A DNA stretch of 64,000 nt from Eledone cirrhosa (lineage: Eukaryota), in assembly GCA_964016885.1 (NCBI GenBank), contig OZ024741.1, positions 163,246,001 to 163,310,000 of the forward strand, written 5' to 3'. The translations under genes and the position numbers were made by a program. Shown one piece after another: positions 4,105 through 53,770 of this stretch (positions within the stretch are counted from its first letter, which is position 1; every line of letters begins with the position of its first letter). A model generated the notes under the pieces. It was not told the DNA's origin. It did no database searches and saw nothing but the letters and a program-made list of their open reading frames with translations.

Positions 4105-4270
4105 GAGACTCCGACAGCTGAGCTCCGGCCGTTTCAACGGATCTAGCTGTTGAAACGGGCGGAGCTCAGCTGTCGGGGTCCTTAATTTTTCATATTATCC
4201 ACTCTACTACCCAAGTATCGAGTACTCTGGTGAGTAATGGTCTAGCTAGTTTTTACCGCCTCCAATTTGT
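4105..4270 (+). mobile_element. Short fold-back 3' end of the 45134-49060 PLE family (diverged)
   Basis: GAAACGGGCGGAGCTCAGCTGTCGGGGTC...ACTCTACTAC...GAGTACTCTGGTG with inverted 5' part. Confidence 0.7.
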
Positions 4271-4279
4271 TATATATAT

Positions 4280-4419
<140 letters not shown>

Positions 4420-4585
4420 TATATATTTATATATATATATCCAAAGATTAATATGGTTCATTGATTACTCAATGAATACAGTTTTACAATAGATTAAAAG
4501 CATTCAACAAAAATATTTTCCTGGGGTTTTTAATATTATTCAAAATATTAACAAATGAAGATATTCAGATAATCAAATTATATGC

Positions 4586-4645
4586 TTTATTATATATATT
4601 TCGAAGGTACTGTGTTGTTTTTTCAGTACGTCCTCGTCAGATAAA
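4586..4645 (-). ncRNA. Type I hammerhead ribozyme (mirror of 6099-6159)
   Basis: Reverse complement reads TTTAT-CTGACGA-GGACGTACTG...CAGTACCTTC-GAAA-TATATA-TA-ATAAA. Confidence 0.8.
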
Positions 4646-6098
4646 ATATATGATTTGATATATGACATACCTCTACGATCTTGATATTTCAATTCCTGTA
4701 TTGGCAGTGATTTATTTCATCAAATCTCAACATTTATATACCACAAATAATAATATGATAAACTTAAAGAAGAAAAGGACGTGGAATTAGAGATACAAGA
4801 GAAAAAAAAAATAAATACATACATAAATATTTAAATGAATAAAAATAAATAAATGGATGAATAGAGGAAGAAGAAAGGAGAAATAACGACAAAAGAGAGC
4901 GAACATAAAATATAGGGGGATAGATAGAAAAAAACCGTTGTCAATTGAGGAAACCAACCAATTACCATAAACCATTGAATATCTCTTGTATTTGATTATG
5001 GTTAAGCTAATTATACTTATATATTATATCAAAATTAATCAATATACATTACTTTTTATAGCCGTCACATAATTAGTTTAATTAAAAATTTATATAATTT
5101 AATTTAACTCATTATAGATTATAATTTTTGGTTTAGGTAATATATTCCTTAAGTATTTTGTTATAACTTTAAAAAATATTTTATCTTTAAAGAAAATTTA
5201 AATAATTATTAAACATGCATTAAAATGTATATTAAAATACATGCATCAATTTATATAATATATTAAGATCATTTTTTATCCGAATTATTTTATATAAATA
5301 GGATATTCTCTTTGTTTAGAAATGATTAAACAATAGAAATGATTTTATAAAGAGAATATCCTATTTAAATTAAATAAAATAATTCGGATAAAAAATGATC
5401 TTAATATATTATATATATAGATGGTGATATATGCATGTATTTTAATATATATTTTAATGCATGGTTAATAATCATTTAAATTTGCTTTAAAGATAAAAAT
5501 ATGTTTAAAGTTGTAACAAAATACTTAAGGAATATATTACCTAAACCAAAAATTATAATCTATAATGAGTTAAATTAAATTATATAAATTTTTAATTAAA
5601 CTAATTATGTGACGGCTATAGCAAGTAATGTATATTGATTAATTTTGATATAATATATAAGTATAATTAGCTTAACCATATATAATATATAAGTATAATT
5701 AGCTTAACCATAATCAAATACAAGAGATATTCAATGGTAATTGATTTGTTGCCTCAATTGACCTAATATTTGAAATCAACGTTTTTTCTATCTATCCCAC
5801 TATATTTTATGTTCGCTCTCTTTTGTCGTAATTTCTCCTTTCTTCTTCCTCTATTCATCCATCCATTTATTTATTTTTATTCATTTAAATATTTATGTAT
5901 GTATTTATTTATTTTTTCTCTTGGCTTCCTCCTCTTTACACCCTCTCTTATATCTCGCCCCACGCCCTTTTCTTCTTTAAGTTCATCAGATTATTATTTG
6001 TGGTATATAAATGTTGAGATTTGATTAAATAAATCACTGCCAATACAGGAATTGAAATATCAAGACCGTAGAGGTATGTCATATATCAAATCATATAT

Positions 6099-6159
6099 TT
6101 TATCTGACGAGGACGTACTGAAAAAAACAACTCAGTACCTTCGAAATATATATAATAAA
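6099..6159 (+). ncRNA. Type I hammerhead ribozyme, canonical core
   Basis: Stem I TTTAT/ATAAA; CTGACGA (6104-6110); stem II GGAC-GTACTGA...TCAGTAC-CTTC; GAAA; stem III TATATA; AUA site. Confidence 0.8.
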
Positions 6160-6204
6160 GCATATAATTTGATTATGTGAATATCTTCATTTGTTAATAT
6201 TTTG

Positions 6205-6255
<51 letters not shown>

Positions 6256-8403: not shown

Positions 8404-8468
<65 letters not shown>
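6870..8468. repeat. Compound (TA)n/(CA)n microsatellite field, ~1.6 kb
   Basis: Direct reading. Confidence 0.95.
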
Positions 8469-8470
<2 letters not shown>

Positions 8471-8569
8471 TATGAAGAGAGAAGAAACATTTAGATATAA
8501 TTAGTAATAAAAGAGAAGAAACATTCTCACGTCGTGTAGACGCGTTCTTGAGACTAGTAAAATGAGGTA

Positions 8570-8657
8570 TCCTCTTGATAAGTCGGCAGACCTCGCAAGG
8601 ACTCTATATCTTTGATATATTGTTTTTGTTTATGCCACGAAACTACGTAGTCGAGGA
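8570..8657 (+). ncRNA. Type I hammerhead ribozyme, U3-A8 core variant
   Basis: Stem I TCCTC/GAGGA; core TTGATAA (8575-8581); stem II GT-C-GGCA...TGCC-AC; GAAA (8639-8642); palindromic stem III CTACGTAG; GUC site, predicted cut after 8652. Confidence 0.85.
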
Positions 8658-9160
8658 ATTTAGGAACAGTTTAGGTATGATACATTTTATTACTAATTAT
8701 ATCTAAATGTTTCTTCTCTCTTCATAATGTATTTTTAACTCTGATACTGGTTCAGTCTAGTTCAAACAGAATTGGTCTGTCCCAGTCATTCATTGAGCAA
8801 CATCGGTGAAGTTGGCACCCTTAACTCACAGTTGGGTGCGGATGCATTCATGTATATATGTGTGTGTCCGCATGTATCTGTGTGTTTCTAAATATATTAA
8901 TAACTCCCTCTGGTCGAGCAATCTTTGAAGTGTGGGGACAACTGGAAAGCTTCCATTACTCATACTTCTCGCCTTCTTCACTACCTCTTCTGCGGCCTCG
9001 ATATGAGTACCCCCTCCGCCTCCGTGGTATTTTCTTCGTGGTTATAAGAGGCTTAGCTCTGTTTCTCGACCGTTATATCGCGTGACTATCTCCCCCTCCG
9101 CCTTTTGGGATTCTTTCTCACGTCGTGTAGACGCGTTCTTGAGACTAGTAAAATGAGGTA

Positions 9161-9248
9161 TCCTCTTGATAAGTCGGCAGACCTCGCAAGGACTCTATAT
9201 CTTTGATATATTGTTTTTGTTTATGCCACGAAACTACGTAGTCGAGGA
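9161..9248 (+). ncRNA. Type I hammerhead ribozyme, U3-A8 variant (second tandem copy)
   Basis: Same sequence as 8570-8657 shifted by 591; predicted cut after 9243. Confidence 0.85.
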
Positions 9249-9539
9249 ATTTAGGAACAGTTTAGGTATGATACATTTTATTACTAATTATATCTAAATG
9301 TTTCTTCTCTCTTCATAATGTATTTTTAACTCTGATACTGGTTCAGTCTAGTTCAAACAGAATTGGTCTGTCCCAGTCATTCATTGAGCAACATCGGTGA
9401 AGTTGGCACCCTTAACTCACAGTTGGGTGCGGATGCATTCATGTATATATGTGTGTGTCCGCATGTATCTGTGTGTTTCTAAATATATATATATATATAT
9501 ATACACGCATACACACATACATACACACACACATACACA

Positions 9540-9576
<37 letters not shown>

Positions 9577-9594
9577 TATATATATAATATATAT

Positions 9595-15623: not shown

Positions 15624-15655
<32 letters not shown>

Positions 15656-15682
15656 ATATATATACATATATATGTATATTTA

Positions 15683-15875
15683 ACGAAGGAATTGTGGTAA
15701 GGAACCAGATGGACCATAACACACCAGAGGACTCAATACTTAGGGTAGTAGAGTGGGTAATAGGAAAAAGTATGATCCCGACAGCAGAGCTCAAGCCGTT
15801 TCGACGACAATTTCTGGACTGAAATAGCCGTCGAAACGGCTTGAGCTCTGCTGGTGGAGTCATACATTTCCCTAT
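15683..15875 (-). mobile_element. Short fold-back 3' end of the same PLE family
   Basis: Matches reverse complement of 48920-49060, then folds back within HHR stem II; (TA)n flanks. Confidence 0.8.
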
Positions 15876-15889
15876 ATATATATATAGTT

Positions 15890-24618: not shown

Positions 24619-24674
<56 letters not shown>

Positions 24675-25194
24675 AAAGAAGAGAAATAGGACGAAGGTAA
24701 ACAATTACAAAAGAATTTAATCCACGTATTTACAATTGTTTCATCAGAATTTCAGTCCATTATTGCTACACTATGTTATAATAGGCAATCAAGAAAGATA
24801 CTGTGGAATCCGAATTTTCAAAATACAAAGTTGGAATGACCTTAGGAAATGAAATAAGGGGTAGTAGTGTAAGATAGAGGAACAGAGAGAGAGAGGGGGG
24901 CAAAAGAGAGGGAGAGAGAGAGAGAGAGAGAGAAAAGGGATAGAGGAAGGGAGAGAAAGAGAAAGAGGTAGTGTGGTGTGAGAGGGTTTGTATAGGGAGG
25001 GGGAGGAGGGATGTGTGCTAAAAGTTGTGATGAGTAGAGGGAGAGAGAAGGAAGATAGAATTTTAAGAGGCATTTGGAAGTGGACAGGCGAAAGTCTTAC
25101 CAGAGAACAGATGAAGGAAGAAAGTATTAAATTTCATATATAGTCTATTTTTAAGGGTGTAGAATTGTTATTTAGGGTAGAAAGATAGGTAGTG

Positions 25195-25788
25195 TTAGGA
25201 TTTGGTTGAAGGTTTGAAGTGTGAGAATTTCGCTTTCAGTTTATGCTGGCAAAAAATTGACCTTTCAATTTTGTTGTTGAGAAGTTGGTGGCTTGAGCTT
25301 AGAATATGGAAGAGCTCATTATTACACAACGGGCACGTTTTCATCCCACTCCGGTATGGAGGAGCATGTGAGAGTTTGGTCCATTTAAGGGTGTATTGTC
25401 GGTTACTCCCTTTTAAGTGCCAAATTTTGTCGGCGAGAGTCGTTACGTAACGGTGTTGGTGGTGCTTTATTGCGTAACGATGCGTGTACCAACGAGTTTT
25501 GAAGGTGTTTGCAGTGCTGCCTATGTAGTACCAGGTTTGGTTGCCCGACTCAACCGAGCACCTGTATACTAGGTTTGAATGCAAACATTCGTTATTCAAT
25601 GGACAAGTCTCTGGAAGGTGGCAATTACAATTTCTGTTATGGGCAGTGGTGGAGTTATAGGTGTGCTGGGATGTGTGTGTGAGTGTGTTTTGTGCATACT
25701 GATTGTTAGTGGGTGGTTGTGTATTAGGTGTATTATTGTGTTGAGCGATTGGGGTGTTGTTGTTACGGAGTTTTTTGGCGTTGAGCAT
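25195..25788 (-). CDS. Penelope-like GIY-YIG endonuclease (joins the RT if one base is removed from the T8 run at 25885-25892)
   Basis: CNCHLPETCP, LVYRC, YYIGST, FKTRW, CPLC, CQH motifs. Confidence 0.9.
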   Translation of the reverse strand: MLNAKKLRNNNTPIAQHNNTPNTQPPTNNQYAQNTLTHTSQHTYNSTTAHNRNCNCHLPETCPLNNECLHSNLVYRCSVESGNQTWYYIGSTANTFKTRWYTHRYAIKHHQHRYVTTLADKIWHLKGSNRQYTLKWTKLSHAPPYRSGMKTCPLCNNELFHILSSSHQLLNNKIERSIFCQHKLKAKFSHFKPSTKS

Positions 25789-25864
25789 CTTAATGTGTGC
25801 GTCTAGGTTTGGTGCAGTGGAATAAGATAGTCTAATTGTTTTGGTATTAAGTATACTACTATAT

Positions 25865-26698
25865 TTATGTGAATTTGGAAAGTGTTTTTTTTATAATTTT
25901 GTAGAATGTGGAAGGTAAGTTAGAGCTAATAGAAGAGTTAAAAATAGGATTATACCAAATGTAAGATCTACTCCGTGTTCTGTTTTGCTTTGATGTTGCT
26001 GTTGTATTTGTGGTGTGGTTAGTATTAGGGGGTCTAGGTGCGTGTGTGCGGGTGTTTGTGCGGCGTTTGGCGTGTCTGTGGTTATGTGTTTTATGGTTGT
26101 GTGGGTCCATGTATTCTTGTTTGTCGGTGTGGCCAGCCCGTTCTAATGCAGTGTTGTAGTATTCAGCGTGTTGATCGAATATTTGTTGGTTAGATGAGAG
26201 GCGGGATATTCTAAGTGATATACTATGTGGCACGGACCTTATAATAGATAGTGGGTGGTTAGAGCTAGTGTGGATGTAGGTGAGGTTCTCATTGTTTTTG
26301 TGAAAGGGTGTGATAATTTGGGTGTTGAGGTTGAAGGTGGCATCTAGGAAGTTAACTACTTTGGTACTATATTCGTAGGTGATTTTAAGGCCAAGGCTAT
26401 CTAGGGTTCTTCTAATGCTCTTACGGGTTCGTTCTATGTTTTGTTTATTCATGTTTTTAACTAATAGGAGAGCGTCATCTCTATATATTCCGCCTTGAAG
26501 GTAACTAACTTTATTATGTAAGGTGTGGGCTATGTATATACCAACAATATCCGTAACTTGTGCTGAGTCATTAGCACCCATAGTTATGTCAAAGTTATCT
26601 ATTCTATCCTTACGTATCCAAAAGTTATTTTCAAATTTAATTATCGTCTTTCTAGCTGCTAGGATAATGTTTATCTCATCACAACTTTTAGCACACAT
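25865..26698 (-). CDS. Penelope-like reverse transcriptase, C-terminal part (5'-truncated)
   Basis: FDITMGANDSAQVTDIVG, YRDD, VNFLDATFNL, YIHTSSNHP motifs; first ~7 codons come from the inverted pLTR. Confidence 0.9.
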   Translation of the reverse strand: MCAKSCDEINIILAARKTIIKFENNFWIRKDRIDNFDITMGANDSAQVTDIVGIYIAHTLHNKVSYLQGGIYRDDALLLVKNMNKQNIERTRKSIRRTLDSLGLKITYEYSTKVVNFLDATFNLNTQIITPFHKNNENLTYIHTSSNHPLSIIRSVPHSISLRISRLSSNQQIFDQHAEYYNTALERAGHTDKQEYMDPHNHKTHNHRHAKRRTNTRTHAPRPPNTNHTTNTTATSKQNRTRSRSYIWYNPIFNSSISSNLPSTFYKIIKKTLSKFT

Positions 26699-27134
26699 CC
26701 CTCCTCCCCCTCCCTATACAAATCCTCTCACACCACACTACCTCTTTCTCTTTCTCTCCCTTCCTCTATCCCTTTTCTCTCTCTCTCTCTCCCTCTCTTT
26801 TGCCCCTCTCTCTCTCTCTGTTCCTCTATCTTACACTACTACCCCTTATTTCATTTCCTAAGGTCATTCCAACTTTGTATTTTGAAAATTCGGATGCCAC
26901 AGTATCTTTCTTGATTGCCTATTATAACATAGTGTAGCAATAATGGACTGAAATTCTGATGAAACAATTGTAAATACGTGGATTAAATTCTTTTGTAATT
27001 GTTTACCTTCGTCCTATTTCTCTTCTTTGATTACACTCCTCGTTTGTTCGTGTTTCCACTACAGAATCCCTACCAACCTGTCGAGAACTTTCCTCACAAC
27101 TTGTTCTACCAAGCTGTGGAATACTCCTAATAAC

Positions 27135-27165
<31 letters not shown>

Positions 27166-39922: not shown

Positions 39923-39927
39923 CTATA

Positions 39928-39962
<35 letters not shown>

Positions 39963-39964
<2 letters not shown>

Positions 39965-40156
39965 CGGAGGAAATGTGGTAAGGAATCAGGTGGACCATAA
40001 CGCACCAAAGTACTCAAAACTTAGGGTAGTAGAGTGGGTAATAGGAACGAGTAGGACCCCGACGGCTGAGCTCAAGCCGTTTCGACTGCTAATTCTGGAC
40101 TGAATTAGTCGTCGAAACGGCTTGAGCTCAGCCGTCGGGGTCCTACTCGTTCCTAT
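39963..40156 (-). mobile_element. Short fold-back 3' end of the same PLE family
   Basis: Arms ~40040-40093 / ~40103-40156 containing GAAACGGCTTGAGCTCAGCCGTC. Confidence 0.8.
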
Positions 40157-40317
40157 ATATATATATATATATCCGGATGTGGCTGACGGTTGAGAGAAAA
40201 GAGTATTCAATAGCAAAGTAGAGTTTAAATATTTATTTTAATAGGATAGATAGTGAGTCTTGTTACTCTAGAGTTTCGCCTGTTTATCACAAGACTCACT
40301 TTTCAGCCTCAACAAAA

Positions 40318-45082: not shown

Positions 45083-45145
45083 TGTGTGTGTGTGTGTAAT
45101 GTAGGAAATGAATATGTATATATATATATATATAGGAAAAAGTAT

Positions 45146-45243
45146 GACCCCGACAGCAGAGCTCAAGCCGTTTTGACGGCTATTTCTGGACTAAATTAGA
45201 ATTTTTAGCCGGGTGAATAAATAGCCGAACTTGTCAAGGGGGC
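45146..45243 (-). ncRNA. Hammerhead motif, U3-A8 variant, G12A (mirror copy)
   Basis: Reverse complement CCCC-TTGACAA-GTTCGGCTATTT...AAATAGCCGTC-AAAA-CGGC...GCTG-TC-GGGG. Confidence 0.7.
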
Positions 45244-45959
45244 ACTTCCTAATATGGGAAGATTGTAGTTGTCAAGAGGATTGGTTAAAATTTGCTGTAA
45301 ACACAAATAAGTCTATCATCGCATTTGGTGGGAGGTAGGGGTGGCTGAACTTGCCTGTAGAACAATAGGGGTGAGTGGAGTGGTCAAGCGTTGAAAGTGA
45401 TATGTATACAGCAGATTCTAAGGATAGTGTATGAAGTGGAGGAGGGAGGTTATAGAATAGGTAAATCGAACGAGAGTAGGAAACAATAAAAGATAATAGA
45501 AAGAAAAAAAATATATATAATCAGAAATGAATAAAAAAAAATCACAATGCTATCTTACAATTACAGGTTAATAAGTTGAGAATAGAAAAAAACTTGTAGA
45601 AATTGAGTAGTACCAGAACTGATACAACATTAAAGGGGTTTAACACGTCTGCTATAAGTAGTTAGTAAAACGTATTCGGCCAATTCTATCTTAAAATTAC
45701 AGGGGTGGGGGAACTGATACTACAGAGGCCCGATGCGCTGCATAGGTGTAGGGGAAAGAGGCAAAGCAGACAAGGAAGAAAATAGGGGGTGGAAGGAAGT
45801 GATAGGATGAGACAGGGGGAAGAAGAAGACAAAGAGGAAAAGTAGAGAAAAGAGATACATCTACCTAAGTAAGCTGGGGTTTCCCCTAACTTATTCGGCA
45901 AGTGTATGTGTGTGTGGGAGGGGTATCAGACCTTGTATACCCACCCGGATCGTTATGGG

Positions 45960-46885
45960 GTTTGAGGGCGAGGTAAGTCCTACGCAATCTGTGTTTGCAT
46001 GCGGTTACCTGTTCGTCTTTCTTGTTTAGGAGTTGGTCCTACGAAAACATCATTTGTAATGTTTCCTCCGAGCATAAGTTACACGGACGGCGTCCTCCCG
46101 TGTAAGAGTTAGCTCTGGACAGTAAGTTCCAAATGAGATTGTAGGTTATATTATTATCTTGGGGGCCCCTGATGTGGGCCGAAAGTGTAGTGGCATGTCG
46201 CCGGACCGGGTTTCGGAAAGTATTTCGGTGTTGGCAGAGCCGGGTCTTTAAGTCACACGCAGTTAATCCTATATATGCTTTGTTGGAGGTGTCCGTCCTC
46301 ACGGTGCACTGGTAGATCACGTTACGTTCTCAGCATTTGTTGTTGAGGGTGAACGTAGATCTATCAGGGCAGTTACACCTCCTGGTCGGCTCTCCACTGC
46401 TGTCTAGCTTATTTATTCCATAGGGGTTGAGTTTTTTGTTGTTTGAGGAGACGATGTTTTGTGCGAAGTTAGGTGGGGTGCTGTAGGAAAGTTTGATGGT
46501 GTTTTTGTTGATTATGTTGTGGTAGCGGTGTTGTAGTGGGAAGTGTTTTTCGAGGAGTCTAAAGAAGAGTTTCCCGATAGATGTTGCAACCTCGGCATTA
46601 TGGGGAGGATTGAACCACGTTACGCTGCGCAAGCGGCAGTGTCGCCTGCTGGTTCTGCTAAGGGAAGCTGGATAAAAGGATATTTCCTCCCGGAAGCCAC
46701 TCCGCTTGAGGGCCTGGTTGTAATGAGGGCCTGCGTGTTCGTCGAATATCTGTTCATTAGCGGACAAACGAGATATGCGGAGGGAGATGTTTTTAACCAG
46801 GTTATTGGTGATATTTCTAGGATGGTTTGAGCGGCGGTGGATGTAGTGCAAGTTGTCGTTTGGTTTCCTGTATGGGTAGTACAGT
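45960..46885 (-). pseudogene. Penelope-like RT thumb + GIY-YIG, disrupted
   Basis: YIHRRSNHP, TWFNPP, CNCPDRS, AYIGLT, CNLCSEE; in-frame stops split ORFs 46330-46851 and 46039-46320. Confidence 0.88.
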
Positions 46886-46898
46886 CATTTTCACTACA

Positions 46899-47490
46899 TA
46901 CTTCCCACTACAACGCCGCTACCACAACATAATCAACAAAAACACCATCAAACTCTTTTATAGCACCACACCTAACTTCGCACAAAACATCGTCTCCTCA
47001 AACAACAAAAAATTCAACCCCTATGGAAGAAATAACCTAGACATCAGTGGAGAGCCGACCATTAAGTGTAACTGCCCTGATAGATCTACGTGCCCCCTCA
47101 ACAAAAAATGCCGAGAACGTAACGTGATCTACCAGTGCAGCGTGAGGACGGACACCTCCAACAATGCTTATATAGGATTAACCGCGTGTGACTTCAAGTC
47201 CCGGCTCTACCAACACCGACATACTTCCGAAACCCGGTCCGGCGACATGTCACTACACTTTCGGGCCACATCTGGGACCTCCAAGATAATAATATAACCT
47301 ACAATCTCACTTGGAGCTTACTGTCCAGAGCTAACTCTTACACGGGAGGACGCCGTCCGTGTAACTTATGCTCGGAGGAAACATTACAAATGCTGCTTTC
47401 GAAGGACCAACTCCTAAACAAGAAAGACGAACTGGTAACCGCATGCAAACACAGATTGCGTAGGACTTACCTCGCCCTCAAACCCCATAA
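46899..47490 (+). pseudogene. Penelope-like GIY-YIG, frameshifted mirror copy
   Basis: CNCPDRSTCP, VIYQC, AYIGLT; frameshift near 47225. Confidence 0.88.
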
Positions 47491-48021
47491 TGACTCGGGT
47501 GGGTAGACAAGGGTTGATACCCCCCCCCCCTCCGACACACATTTACACTTGCCAAATAAGTTAGAGGAAACCCCAGCTTACTTAGGTAGATGTATCTCAT
47601 TTCTCTACTTTTCCTCTTTGTCTTCTTCTTCCCGCTGTCTCATCCTATCACTTCCTTCCACCCCCTATTTTCTTCCTCGTCTGCTTTTCCTCTTTCGCCT
47701 ACCCCGATGCAGCGCATCGGGCCTCTGTAGCATCAGTTCCCCACCCCTGTAATTTTAAGATAGAATTGGCCGAATACGTTTTACTAACTACTTATAGCAG
47801 ACGTGTTAAACCTCTTTAATGTTGTATCAGTTCTGGTACTACTCAATTTCTACAAGTGTTTTCTATTCTCAACTTATTAACCTGTAATTGTAAGATAGCA
47901 TTGTTATTTTTTATTCATTTCTCATTATATATATATATTTTTTCTATTATCTTTTATTGTCTTCTACTCTCATTCGATTTACCTATTCTATAACCTCCCT
48001 CCTCCACTTCATACACTATCC

Positions 48022-48681
48022 GGCATAGGTTAAGGTTAACGTCCTCGAAAATTAAAGTAGGTTTTCTGACAAGTGAATGTGTTTTTGTTTTTTTTACAAT
48101 GAAATTTACGATACACTCTTTGTTTATTTACAACAGGTCTCTATAGTGATATGGTGTTAATTAGTATTGCGTGTGTGATTATTTTCTCTTATATATATAT
48201 GTGTGGGTGTGTATATGTGTGTATATATATGTGTGTCTGTATGTATATATATATGTGTGTTTGTATATATATATGTGTTTGTGTCATCATCATCGTTTAG
48301 ATGGTTTTGTAATATCTTGCCAAGGTTGGCACCAACTATAAACAAATTAAGGCCGGGTCATAGGTAGGACAGAGAATGATAAGGGATTTGGGTAAAAACA
48401 TCTAAACGATGATGATGACACAAACACATATATATATACAAACACACATATATATATACATACAGACACACATATATATACACACATATACACACCCACA
48501 CATATATATATAAGAGAAAATAATCACACACGCAATACTAATTAACACCATATCACTATAGAGACCTGTTGTAAATAAACAAAGAGTGTATCGTAAATGT
48601 CACTGTAAAAAAAAAAAAAAACACATTCACTTGTCAGAAAACCTACTTTCATTTTCGAGGACGTTAAACTTAACCTATGCC
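48022..48681. mobile_element. Non-autonomous long-TIR (foldback/MITE) element, 660 bp, 8-bp TSD
   Basis: TIRs ~48022-48303 / ~48399-48681 starting GGCATAGGTTAAG; TSD CACTATCC at 48014-48021 and 48682-48689; empty site in the mirror arm near 45422-45429. Confidence 0.9.
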
Positions 48682-48870
48682 CACTATCCTTAGAATCTGC
48701 TGTATACATATTACTTTCAACGCTTGACCACTCCGCTCACACCCCTATTGTTCTACAGGCAAGTTCAGCCATCCCTACCTCCCACCAAATGCGATGATAG
48801 ACTTATTTGTGTTTACAACAAATTTTAACCAATCCTCTTGACAACTACAATCTTCCCATATAAGGAAGTA

Positions 48871-48967
48871 CGCCCTTGACAAGTTCGGCTATTTATTCAC
48901 CAGGCTAAACATTCTAATTTAGTCCAGAAATAGCGGTCAAAACGGCTTCAGCTCTGCCGTCGGGGTC
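48871..48967 (+). ncRNA. Hammerhead motif, U3-A8 variant, with G12A change (probably inactive)
   Basis: CCC-TTGACAA-GTTCGGCTATTT...AAATAGCGGTC-AAAA-CGGC...GCCG-TC-GGG; other family copies have GAAA. Confidence 0.7.
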
Positions 48968-49057
48968 ACACTTTTTCCTATTTCCCACTCTACTACTCTA
49001 AGTATTGAGTACTCTGGTGCGTTATGGTCCATCTGGTTCCTTACCACAATTCCTATG

Positions 49058-49112
<55 letters not shown>

Positions 49113-51281: not shown

Positions 51282-51422
51282 TAGGAACAAGTAAGACCCC
51301 GTCGAAACGGCTTGAGCTCAGCCGTCGGGGTCCTACTCGTTCCTATTACCCACTCTACTACCCTGAGTATTGAGTAATTTGGTGCGTTATGGTCCACCTG
51401 GTTCCTTACCACATTTCCTCCG

Positions 51423-51425
<3 letters not shown>
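51282..51425 (+). mobile_element. Short 3' end of the same PLE family with 20-bp inverted head
   Basis: GTCGAAACGGCTTGAGCTCAGCCGTCGGGGTCC...TTACCACATTTCCTCCGTTATA. Confidence 0.8.
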
Positions 51426-51668: not shown

Positions 51669-51717
<49 letters not shown>

Positions 51718-51721
<4 letters not shown>

Positions 51722-52629
51722 GAAGAGAGAAGAAACATTTAGATATAATTAGTAATAAAATGTATCATACCTAAACTGCTCCTAGATTCCTCGACTACGT
51801 AGTTTCGTGGCATAAACAAAAACAATACATCATAAAGATATAGAGTCCCTGCGAGGTCTGCCGACTTATCATTCATAATGTAATTTTAACTCTGATACTG
51901 GTTCAGTCTGGTTCAACCGGATTGGTCTGTCCCAGTCATTCATTGAGCAACATCGGTGAGGTTGGCACCCTTAACTCACGGTTGGGTGTGGATGCATTCA
52001 TGTATATGTGTGTGTCCGCATGTATCTGTGTGTTTCTAAATATATTGTTAATAACTCCCTCTGGTTGAGTAATCTTTGAAGTGTGGTGACTGCTGGAAAG
52101 CTGCCATTACTCATACTTCTCGCCTCCTTCACCACCTCTTCTACGGCTTCGATATAAACACCCCCTCCGCCTCTGTGGTATTTTCTTCGGGGTTATAAGA
52201 GGCTTAGCTCTGTTTCTCGACCGTTATATCGCGTGACTATCTCCCCCTCCGCCTTTTGGGATTCTTTCTCACGTCGTGTAGACGCGTTCTTGAGACTAGT
52301 AAAATGAGGTATCCTCTTGATAAGTCGGCAGACCTCGCAGGGACTCTATATCTTTATGATGTATTGTTTTTGTTTATGCCACGAAACTACGTAGTCGAGG
52401 AATCTAGGAGCAGTTTAGGTATGATACATTTTATTACTAATTATATCTAAATGTTTCTTCTCTCTTCATAATGTAATTTTAACTCTGATACTGGTTCAGT
52501 CTGGTTCAACCGGATTGGTCTGTCCCAGTCATTCATTGAGCAACATCGGTGAGGTTGGCACCCTTAACTCACGGTTGGGTGTGGATGCATTCATGTATAT
52601 GTGTGTGTCCGCATGTATCTGTGTGTTTC

Positions 52630-52635
<6 letters not shown>
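51718..52635 (+). mobile_element. Second locus of the tandem HHR element (period 593) with inverted 5' segment
   Basis: 51872-52043 is repeated from 52465; 51718-51871 is an inverted copy ending inside the HHR core; same 3' end (GTGTTTCTAAATATAT) running into (TA)n as at 9488. Confidence 0.85.
52312..52401 (+). ncRNA. Type I hammerhead ribozyme, U3-A8 variant
   Basis: TCCTC-TTGATAA-GTCGGCA...TGCCAC-GAAA-CTACGTAG-TC-GAGGA; differences from 8570-8657 fall in loop II. Confidence 0.85.
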
Positions 52636-52698
<63 letters not shown>

Positions 52699-53321
52699 CT
52701 ATCTTCGTTCTTAAATGAGTTTAGTTTTATAACCAGCAGATAGTACAAAACCTCAAGGTTAATAGTAAATTAACGTTATTCAACGTACGTTTAATTGGTT
52801 GCCTGATACAATCCAATGGTTGTACAACTCCTTCCAGATATGTAATTATACAATAGGTAATATCTAACATTTTAAATGATAGGGAAAGCAGCCGGTCGTT
52901 AGATCGGACCAAGGAAACAACATTTTCAATTTGTCATGCAAAGAGTAACATAAAATAAATTATTTTGCTGAAAACAAAACAACACACATCGGCCCATGTG
53001 TTGACCTTAGGACCTTATGGTTTTGAGGCCAGCGCCCAACCGCTATGCCACGTATTTATAACCAGTAAAGATATTTCCAAGAAATGAGGTATCTCACTGT
53101 TCCTGAATCCATCTTATACCTGTAGATAGCAGGTTTCCTCTCTGAATTGTTTAAGAAGCAATATGACTAAAATTACTCGACTAGCAACGTAACTTTACAT
53201 ATTCCCTAAACACCTCTTTAAATGTTAATTATACAGAGACTACTGTGCATAATGTGCTGTATAAACAATAGATTACTTTATTAACTAGGAGTGGAATATA
53301 CTCGTCTGGGATCTAATAAAA

Positions 53322-53770
53322 AATTGTTTCTACTTTTGGCAGAAGGCTAGCAATTACCCCAGTGCATTACTGGTATTATTATATTATTTTATCGACCCCG
53401 AAAGGATGAAAGACAAAGGTTAACTTTGCCTGTCATCCTTACGGGCTCGACAAAATAAAGTACCAAATGCACTGGGATAATTGCTGGCCTTGTGCCAAAA
53501 AGTAGAAACAATTATTATATTATTTTATAAGGGCGGTGGATTGACAGTATCAGTAGAGGGTCTAACGCCATGCGTTGATGCATAGAGTTACGCCCCTTTC
53601 CATTCTGATTTCAAATCCCGCCGAAGTTAACTTTGCCTTACGGGGTTGATAAAATAAAGTACCAGTAATGCACTGGATAATTGCTGGCCTTGTACCAAAA
53701 GTAGAAACAATTAGATTATTTTATCGACCCCGTAAGGATGAAAGGCAAAGTTAACCTCGGCAGGATTTGA
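53322..53770. mobile_element. Cluster of tRNA-derived SINE family 1 copies in alternating orientation (near-complete copy 53531-53713 +)
   Basis: Family consensus TGGCAGTATCGG (A-box-like), GAGTTCAAATCC (B box), TTTCATCCTTACGGGGTCGATAAAATAAAGTACCAG core, tail GTAGAAACAATTATT. Confidence 0.85.

Follow-up and report, generated by a model that had tools for sequence, protein, structure and literature searches.

Introduction

Metazoan non-LTR retrozymes are described, in the sections consulted of two reports (PMC7229834; bioRxiv 10.64898/2026.07.22.740005), as non-coding tandem repeats with a type I hammerhead in each unit, without LTR or ORF, with a GC content under 50% and with Penelope-like elements (PLEs) co-existing in the genome. 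The same sections already propose that PLEs mobilise such retrozymes from circles or multimers. PLEs themselves, including the non-autonomous Chlamys/MRC1, are reported in the parts consulted of PMC3846280 and PMC8557442 to form partial tandems with a head-to-head inverted 5′ copy, to carry a tail of 30–40 nt at one end only and to use microsatellite targets; their hammerheads have, according to the part consulted of PMC4209133, a U3-A8 covariant and a short palindromic helix III that lends itself to folding as a dimer. For Poseidon, a PLE of the green anole, the consulted part of PMC11167929 gives two internal start sites of reverse transcription in vitro, downstream of the hammerhead and bounding the tail, together with an AT-rich target cut on both strands, a predicted dimer, and priming that is non-homologous and shows no strand preference for the site.

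The repeat analysed here was found in the window, a 64,000-nt stretch of DNA from the 3.0-Gb genome of Eledone cirrhosa. As in retrozymes, its 591–595-nt units stand in tandem, are non-coding, have a GC content of 43% and carry a type I motif each. The unit is longer than the 170–400 nt given for invertebrate retrozymes and falls inside the range that Li et al. report, 51–972 nt (bioRxiv 10.64898/2026.07.22.740005, in part). The target-site duplication of retrozymes, over 4 bp when present, is not discernible inside (TA)n, and two fixed ends with paired inverted arms are not described for non-LTR retrozymes in the sections consulted of PMC7229834 and bioRxiv 10.64898/2026.07.22.740005. As in non-autonomous PLEs, a partial tandem, an inverted 5′ copy and a one-end tail occur together (71/71) and the target is AT-rich (93/93), although the tail is ~160 nt instead of 30–40 nt and the family has no ORF; the RT plus GIY-YIG ORF of an autonomous PLE is absent from the unit. 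Unlike in Poseidon, insertion ends here track A/T microhomology and each of the two DNA ends invariably uses a site other than its partner's, and the predicted hammerhead motif differs from the PLE hammerheads of PMC4209133 by a long (~50 nt) stem–loop II extension.

We consider this very probably a real non-autonomous PLE-type retrozyme family. A literature search of partial coverage found no description of the family and no counts of end pairing, which does not imply that either is unpublished. The element class has been published before, as have its tail and the hypothesis of a circle; strict pairing, a long tail and evidence from haplotypes are the additions made here.

Results

Organisation of the window locus and of a second locus

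The window locus has the order (TA)n, inverted arm, direct arm (unit positions 420–593 followed by 1–593) and (TA)n, with the numbering 1–593 beginning at window position 52046. The features of this locus and the extent of the second one (locus 1) are the following:

51671..51716, no strand: left (TA)n target tract (TRF and sequence)
51717..51871, minus strand: inverted arm, unit positions ~427–430 back to 273, with its outer end at fixed site B
51872..52045, plus strand: 5′-truncated partial unit of the direct arm, positions 420–593, identical to 52465–52638
52030..52062, plus strand: tail-to-head ‘junction’, that is, priming site A read through into the next unit
52046..52634, plus strand: complete 593-nt unit, its final 4 nt merging into the TA tract
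52312..52401, plus strand: predicted type I hammerhead motif (motif scan and covariation)
52466..52475, plus strand: fixed end and putative priming site B (..TTCATAAT/GTA)
52473..52634, plus strand: ~160-nt ‘tail’ between B and A, found at one end only of inverted insertions
52625..52640, plus strand: fixed end and putative priming site A (..TTTCTAAAT/ATAT)
52635..52696, no strand: right (TA)n target tract (TRF)
8466..9488, plus strand: locus 1, of the 591-nt subfamily, flanked by (TA)n on both sides

The inverted arm of the window locus (51717–51871) is the 100% reverse complement of 52318–52472 and carries a copy of the hammerhead without the 5′ strand of stem I; its join to the direct arm (51871/51872) is blunt. 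The period of 593 nt is given by a 174-nt repeat, 51872–52045 being 100% identical to 52465–52638. The complete unit (GC 43%) folds better than its shuffles (z −4.3) and contains no long ORF, its six-frame translation being full of stops. With one complete sense hammerhead, the window locus is probably a dead end.

Locus 1 is 95% identical to the window locus. Its inverted arm (8466–8512) runs from unit position 430 back to 384, ending at B, and an 11-nt templated filler separates it from the direct arm (8524–9488), which reads 221–593 followed by 3–593, ends at A and contains two complete hammerhead motifs (8570–8657 and 9161–9248). The period here is 591 nt, from a 374-nt repeat of 100% identity.

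A previous sequence-only reading of the window had described a tail-to-head junction common to both loci and a common final base in (TA)n. Both features were confirmed, as the two loci read ...GTTTCTAAATATATT(GTT)AATAACTCCCTC at the junction and finish at ...GTTTCTAAAT in (TA)n. That reading overlooked the inversion at both loci, and its statement that they start at different points was not borne out: at each locus the first element is an inverted arm that stops at B, and the differences are confined to the inner breakpoints of the inversions. What appears as a junction is no more than priming site A within a circularly permuted repeat. Processed RNA ends would sit at the predicted hammerhead cut, ~238 nt upstream.

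Shared flanking DNA, which had been named as a sign of segmental duplication, was looked for in the 3-kb flanks of the two loci, and all that they have in common is a dispersed ~170-nt repeat, at differing offsets and with 75–96% identity. A DNA-level satellite or segmental duplication, without an RNA step, has in its favour one local duplicate pair in the family (L104). As the origin of the family it is hardly credible, being refuted by these unrelated flanks, with copies on many chromosomes and fixed 3′ ends accompanied by variable 5′ ends and inversions. The dispersed ~170-nt repeat is SINE-like, sometimes tandem or inverted, and was seen in the window at 9590, 29293, 31506, 49304, 53314–53760, 57200, 61930 and 62474.

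Family size and sampling

DNA searches gave 2,088, 1,922 and 902 first-look candidates, of which 40 per search were scored. The junction pattern had 2,888 exact matches in the genome, compared with 0 for the reversed control, and 99 of the 100 junction matches listed fell into two forms, which differ in the presence of GTT. The fixed unit length of the earlier reading also holds, within subfamilies of 591, 593 and 595 nt. On the forward strand, the end patterns matched 1,166 times for A vs 1,520 times for B, reverse-strand counts being inflated by multiple registers.

Three samples were used. The best-hit sample comprised 64 merged regions not chosen by their flanks; the position-sampled set took in every clustered end-pattern site listed for the first ~55 Mb of C1 (59 in all), and is biased toward intact ends in TA; the third consisted of 20 regions picked for arrays. 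Three groups (two local duplicates and one pair of abutting insertions), groups with <100 aligned sites and indel-prone columns were excluded before variants were counted, and 3 cut groups were left out of the end-pair classes. Copies are spread over many chromosomes. Tandem arms reach ~7 units, and among 61 position-sampled insertions, 21 do not reach the length of one unit.

Two fixed ends are paired in inverted insertions

Insertions end at two fixed sites ~160 nt apart, A and, upstream of it, B. All 58 inverted insertions with both ends at fixed sites (30 best-hit and 28 position-sampled, one of them a local duplicate) combined A with B, as did 13 of 13 in the array-chosen sample. Neither A+A nor B+B was found among the 71, and 70/70 against a 50:50 null gives p = 2e-21. 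In 12 further inverted insertions one end was irregular. Copies with a direct arm only ended at A in 33 cases, at B in 28 and elsewhere in 1. In the best-hit sample, (TA)n adjoined 52/52 A ends and 41/41 B ends, 93/93 in all.

The single constant 3′ end of the sequence-only reading is thus replaced by two, of which B is at least as common. The model derived from that reading has a monomer circle copied in rolling fashion from a single fixed 3′ end, the 5′ ends falling at random more than one unit away. It agrees with the fixed junction, the read-through of the hammerhead site and the homogeneous arrays, and we nevertheless regard it as very improbable, since the second end and the strict pairing refute a single end. 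The 21/61 insertions under one unit and the long insertion L223, described below, also speak against it, and 46 of 84 position-sampled arms were no longer than the unit.

The inverted arm could also be a fold-back copy of the first cDNA, afterwards cut or resolved at the other fixed site, with no independent priming. Self-priming followed by endonuclease resolution is proposed in the consulted parts of PMC8557442 and PMC3846280. Exact fold-back centres were found in 4 of the 58 inner joins, and haplotypes are common to both arms. In 23 of the 58 insertions, however, each arm includes sequence that the other lacks, and in 3 of these the arms have no sequence in common at all; fold-back of a single cDNA cannot give such arms and is largely refuted for those 23. 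Moreover, there are direct copies primed at A only and others primed at B only. Fold-back is therefore an unlikely origin for the inverted arms. The inner joins of the 58 showed microhomology in 38 cases, filler in 11, a blunt join in 7 and a long overlap in 2.

The registers of the A ends track the downstream sequence of each subfamily: a TG extension was present in 0/26 vs 8/35 ends (p = 0.016), and ends without extension made up 23/26 vs 5/35. As the last templated bases at A follow the subfamily's own downstream sequence, the template continues past A. From the end sequences, priming is likely to take place internally, the target being matched by a few A/T bases, as had been proposed for (TA)n; the match would lie at AAATATAT. 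Paired two-site priming, with A used on one DNA end and B on the other, is probable, and the inverted insertions that pair two different fixed ends likely show that both cut DNA ends were primed on one RNA.

The predicted hammerhead motif

The type I motif occupies unit positions 267–356, with a U3:A8 core (TTGATAA...GAAAC), a long (~50 nt) stem–loop II extension and a palindromic stem III, and its predicted cut follows window position 52396. A scan of the window at the Rfam gathering score gave 0 matches, and the MFE fold of the monomer does not form the full motif. In a sister family of 67% identity, compensatory changes affect two pairs of stem I as well as the palindrome of stem III. Over 20 sequences, 93.9% of cells were paired, the covariation amounting essentially to one branch between the two families; the stems were 97–98% paired with compensatory changes.

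The claim that substitutions spare the hammerhead was upheld as a count between the two loci, with 0/26 substitutions in 41 core and stem positions, a result that chance would nevertheless give with p = 0.15. Purifying selection fared similarly: within the family, 3 alleles at 41 sites vs 135 at 508 gave p = 0.007 per site, a difference lost against one-unit mutations as the neutral control (p = 0.29).

The predicted cut was crossed 268 times by arms, leaving no scar, with the exact motif in 256 crossings, substitutions only in 8 and 4 unresolved. A pile-up of 5′ ends at the cut was looked for in 176 arm stops and not seen, 1/176 stops falling at 345–360 vs 4.7 expected.

The copied template

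Read-through of the predicted cut with no pile-up of stops indicates that copying likely proceeded on a circle or on an uncut concatemer. The same alternatives had been raised earlier, and they agree with the finding that the copy continues past the 3′ end. Linear cut monomers are disfavoured as template, given the 268 read-throughs and the single stop near the predicted cut among 176.

Divergence was 0.51% within arms, 0.56% between opposite arms and 1.67% between insertions of one subfamily, although nearest neighbours in other insertions can be equally close (median 0.33%). In 21 of 82 multi-unit insertions, 3 of the 82 being older, diverged copies, an allele was present in all own units (up to 7) and absent from the other sampled insertions; such alleles count as private within a sample of ~124, the family numbering some thousands of copies. 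Their fixation across units favours repeated copying of one unit, and gene conversion could be an alternative homogeniser. Of 127 sites variable within insertions, 117 varied in a single unit and 10 in some but not all units, often neighbours. No register-shared variant was found in the first 124 insertions where two or more other units were available. In L223, units in matching register on the two opposite arms have two variants in common. This favours a single multimeric RNA from which both arms were copied and argues against a pure monomer circle at that insertion.

These patterns bear on the possibility that nothing but linear, uncut multimeric transcripts serves as template, with no role of the hammerhead in making it and with arrays homogenised later at the DNA level. 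The register-matched variants of L223 and the 10/127 sites shared by some units fit such a template, as do two reports consulted in part: uncut RNA is the main substrate of the anole PLE in vitro (PMC11167929), and 8 of 9 frog retrozyme dimers remained uncleaved in vitro (bioRxiv 10.64898/2026.07.22.740005). Against it stand the private alleles fixed in all units and in both arms (21/82), the single-unit state of 117/127 variable sites with no register-shared variant in those 124 insertions, and the maintenance of hammerhead pairing by compensatory change; truncation alone would also be expected to shorten arrays with each generation. We hold a purely linear template to be possible, though the less probable case. 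Judged from these variants, both template routes probably operate, and the chances for and against a circular step appear about even.

The family is present in four sequencing runs (Logan contigs; run type not on record). In one of them, a 621-nt contig wrapping one 591-nt unit was considered as evidence of a circle and set aside, since a tandem DNA repeat collapses likewise.

PLEs and relatives of the family in the genome

The genome is rich in PLEs, with 50,619 candidates. A PLE fragment of the window led to a young family of 3,543 nt with frames of 784–786 aa. This PLE has (TA)n targets, tandem anatomy, an 83-nt tail and a U3:A8 hammerhead. Its fixed ends are again two, separated by 83 nt, and inverted copies with both ends seen use one of each. 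The earlier reading had set its model against truncation of ‘a long element’, whereas the anatomy of the retrozyme family is exactly that of PLEs, including this autonomous one. By blastn, the unit had no similarity to the PLE families examined (few of those in the genome), the 3,543-nt PLE included, which is therefore a model for the mechanism and not a shown partner.

PLE protein matches at loci of the family fall in flanking elements, and the 3′ ends of 14 other PLE protein matches showed no A/B-like end on reading and no hammerhead in a strict scan. Pfam and PDB searches with the PLE protein gave no meaningful match; we take it to be a PLE of the Neptune type from its YIG, YRDD and CxC-type finger motifs. 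A 67%-identical relative considered as partner turned out to be the non-coding sister family (L193–L222), which is older, has a ~620-nt unit and 1,844 candidates, and shows the same layout with homologous A and B ends. A join of a retrozyme to a mini-PLE (L078) reads as a deletion between neighbours.

Several further insertions were recorded in the window. An inverted insertion of the 3,543-nt type (45133–49060) has a frame at 46330–46884 on the minus strand and a U3:A8 hammerhead-like motif, and young copies related to it have intact ~785-aa frames, tandem arrays and an 83-nt one-sided tail. A miniature palindromic insertion of the hammerhead-bearing end of this type lies in (TA)n at 51282–51424, with similar ones at 4149–4315, 15650–15886 and 39924–40167. 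The fragment of a second PLE family (24670–27140) has inverted arms, one ~110 nt longer, and minus-strand frames at 25865–26713 (RT) and 25195–25890 (GIY-YIG-like). Each arm of a large imperfect palindrome (4533–6212) contains a hammerhead-like motif of canonical core, at 4640 (minus) and at 6104 (plus).

Elsewhere in the genome, four full PLE units at L180–L182 (G000:C1:91.47–91.49 Mb) alternate two haplotypes at four sites, and a fifth, partial unit breaks the alternation at three sites checked; upstream of them is a run of >50 copies of a 55-nt piece of the PLE. Another PLE family (L055:160–1100, L105:5307–5708) has, by eye, a minimal U3:A8 hammerhead-like motif, which points to this core variant being common among the PLEs of the genome.

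Discussion

The reading that we consider most probable is that of a non-coding 591–595-nt hammerhead repeat inserted in (TA)n and mobilised in trans by a PLE, with the two DNA ends primed at A and B. A Penelope-like RT/GIY-YIG protein acting in trans would cut the (TA)n tract, and a dimer of it may bind the tail that separates B from A. Annealing of each DNA end through a few A/T bases would follow, and both RTs would copy the same RNA in the upstream direction. The two cDNAs would be joined head-to-head, mostly by microhomology, and a direct copy ending at A or B would result when only one arm is kept. The template is likely to be sometimes an uncut multimeric transcript and sometimes a monomer circle made by the hammerhead, which would re-homogenise new variants.

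There is a slight presumption in favour of a broader claim, that the family offers an in vivo record of PLE integration, in which reverse transcription is paired, each end of a (TA)n break is primed at a different fixed site of the same RNA, and both circles closed by the hammerhead and uncut concatemers are copied. Its youth and high copy number, with sites 160 nt apart, allow the two arms to be readily distinguished. The proposal can be tested by its predictions that each break yields an A product together with a B product and that a single RNA gives rise to both arms.

Two questions are open in the literature as represented by the consulted parts of PMC8557442, PMC7229834 and PMC11167929: the origin of the inverted repeats and one-sided tails of PLEs, and the possible role of PLE enzymes in copying animal retrozymes from circles. 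If the proposal is true, a single rule would explain both the one-end tail and the inverted pLTR of PLEs, for retrozymes and autonomous PLEs alike.
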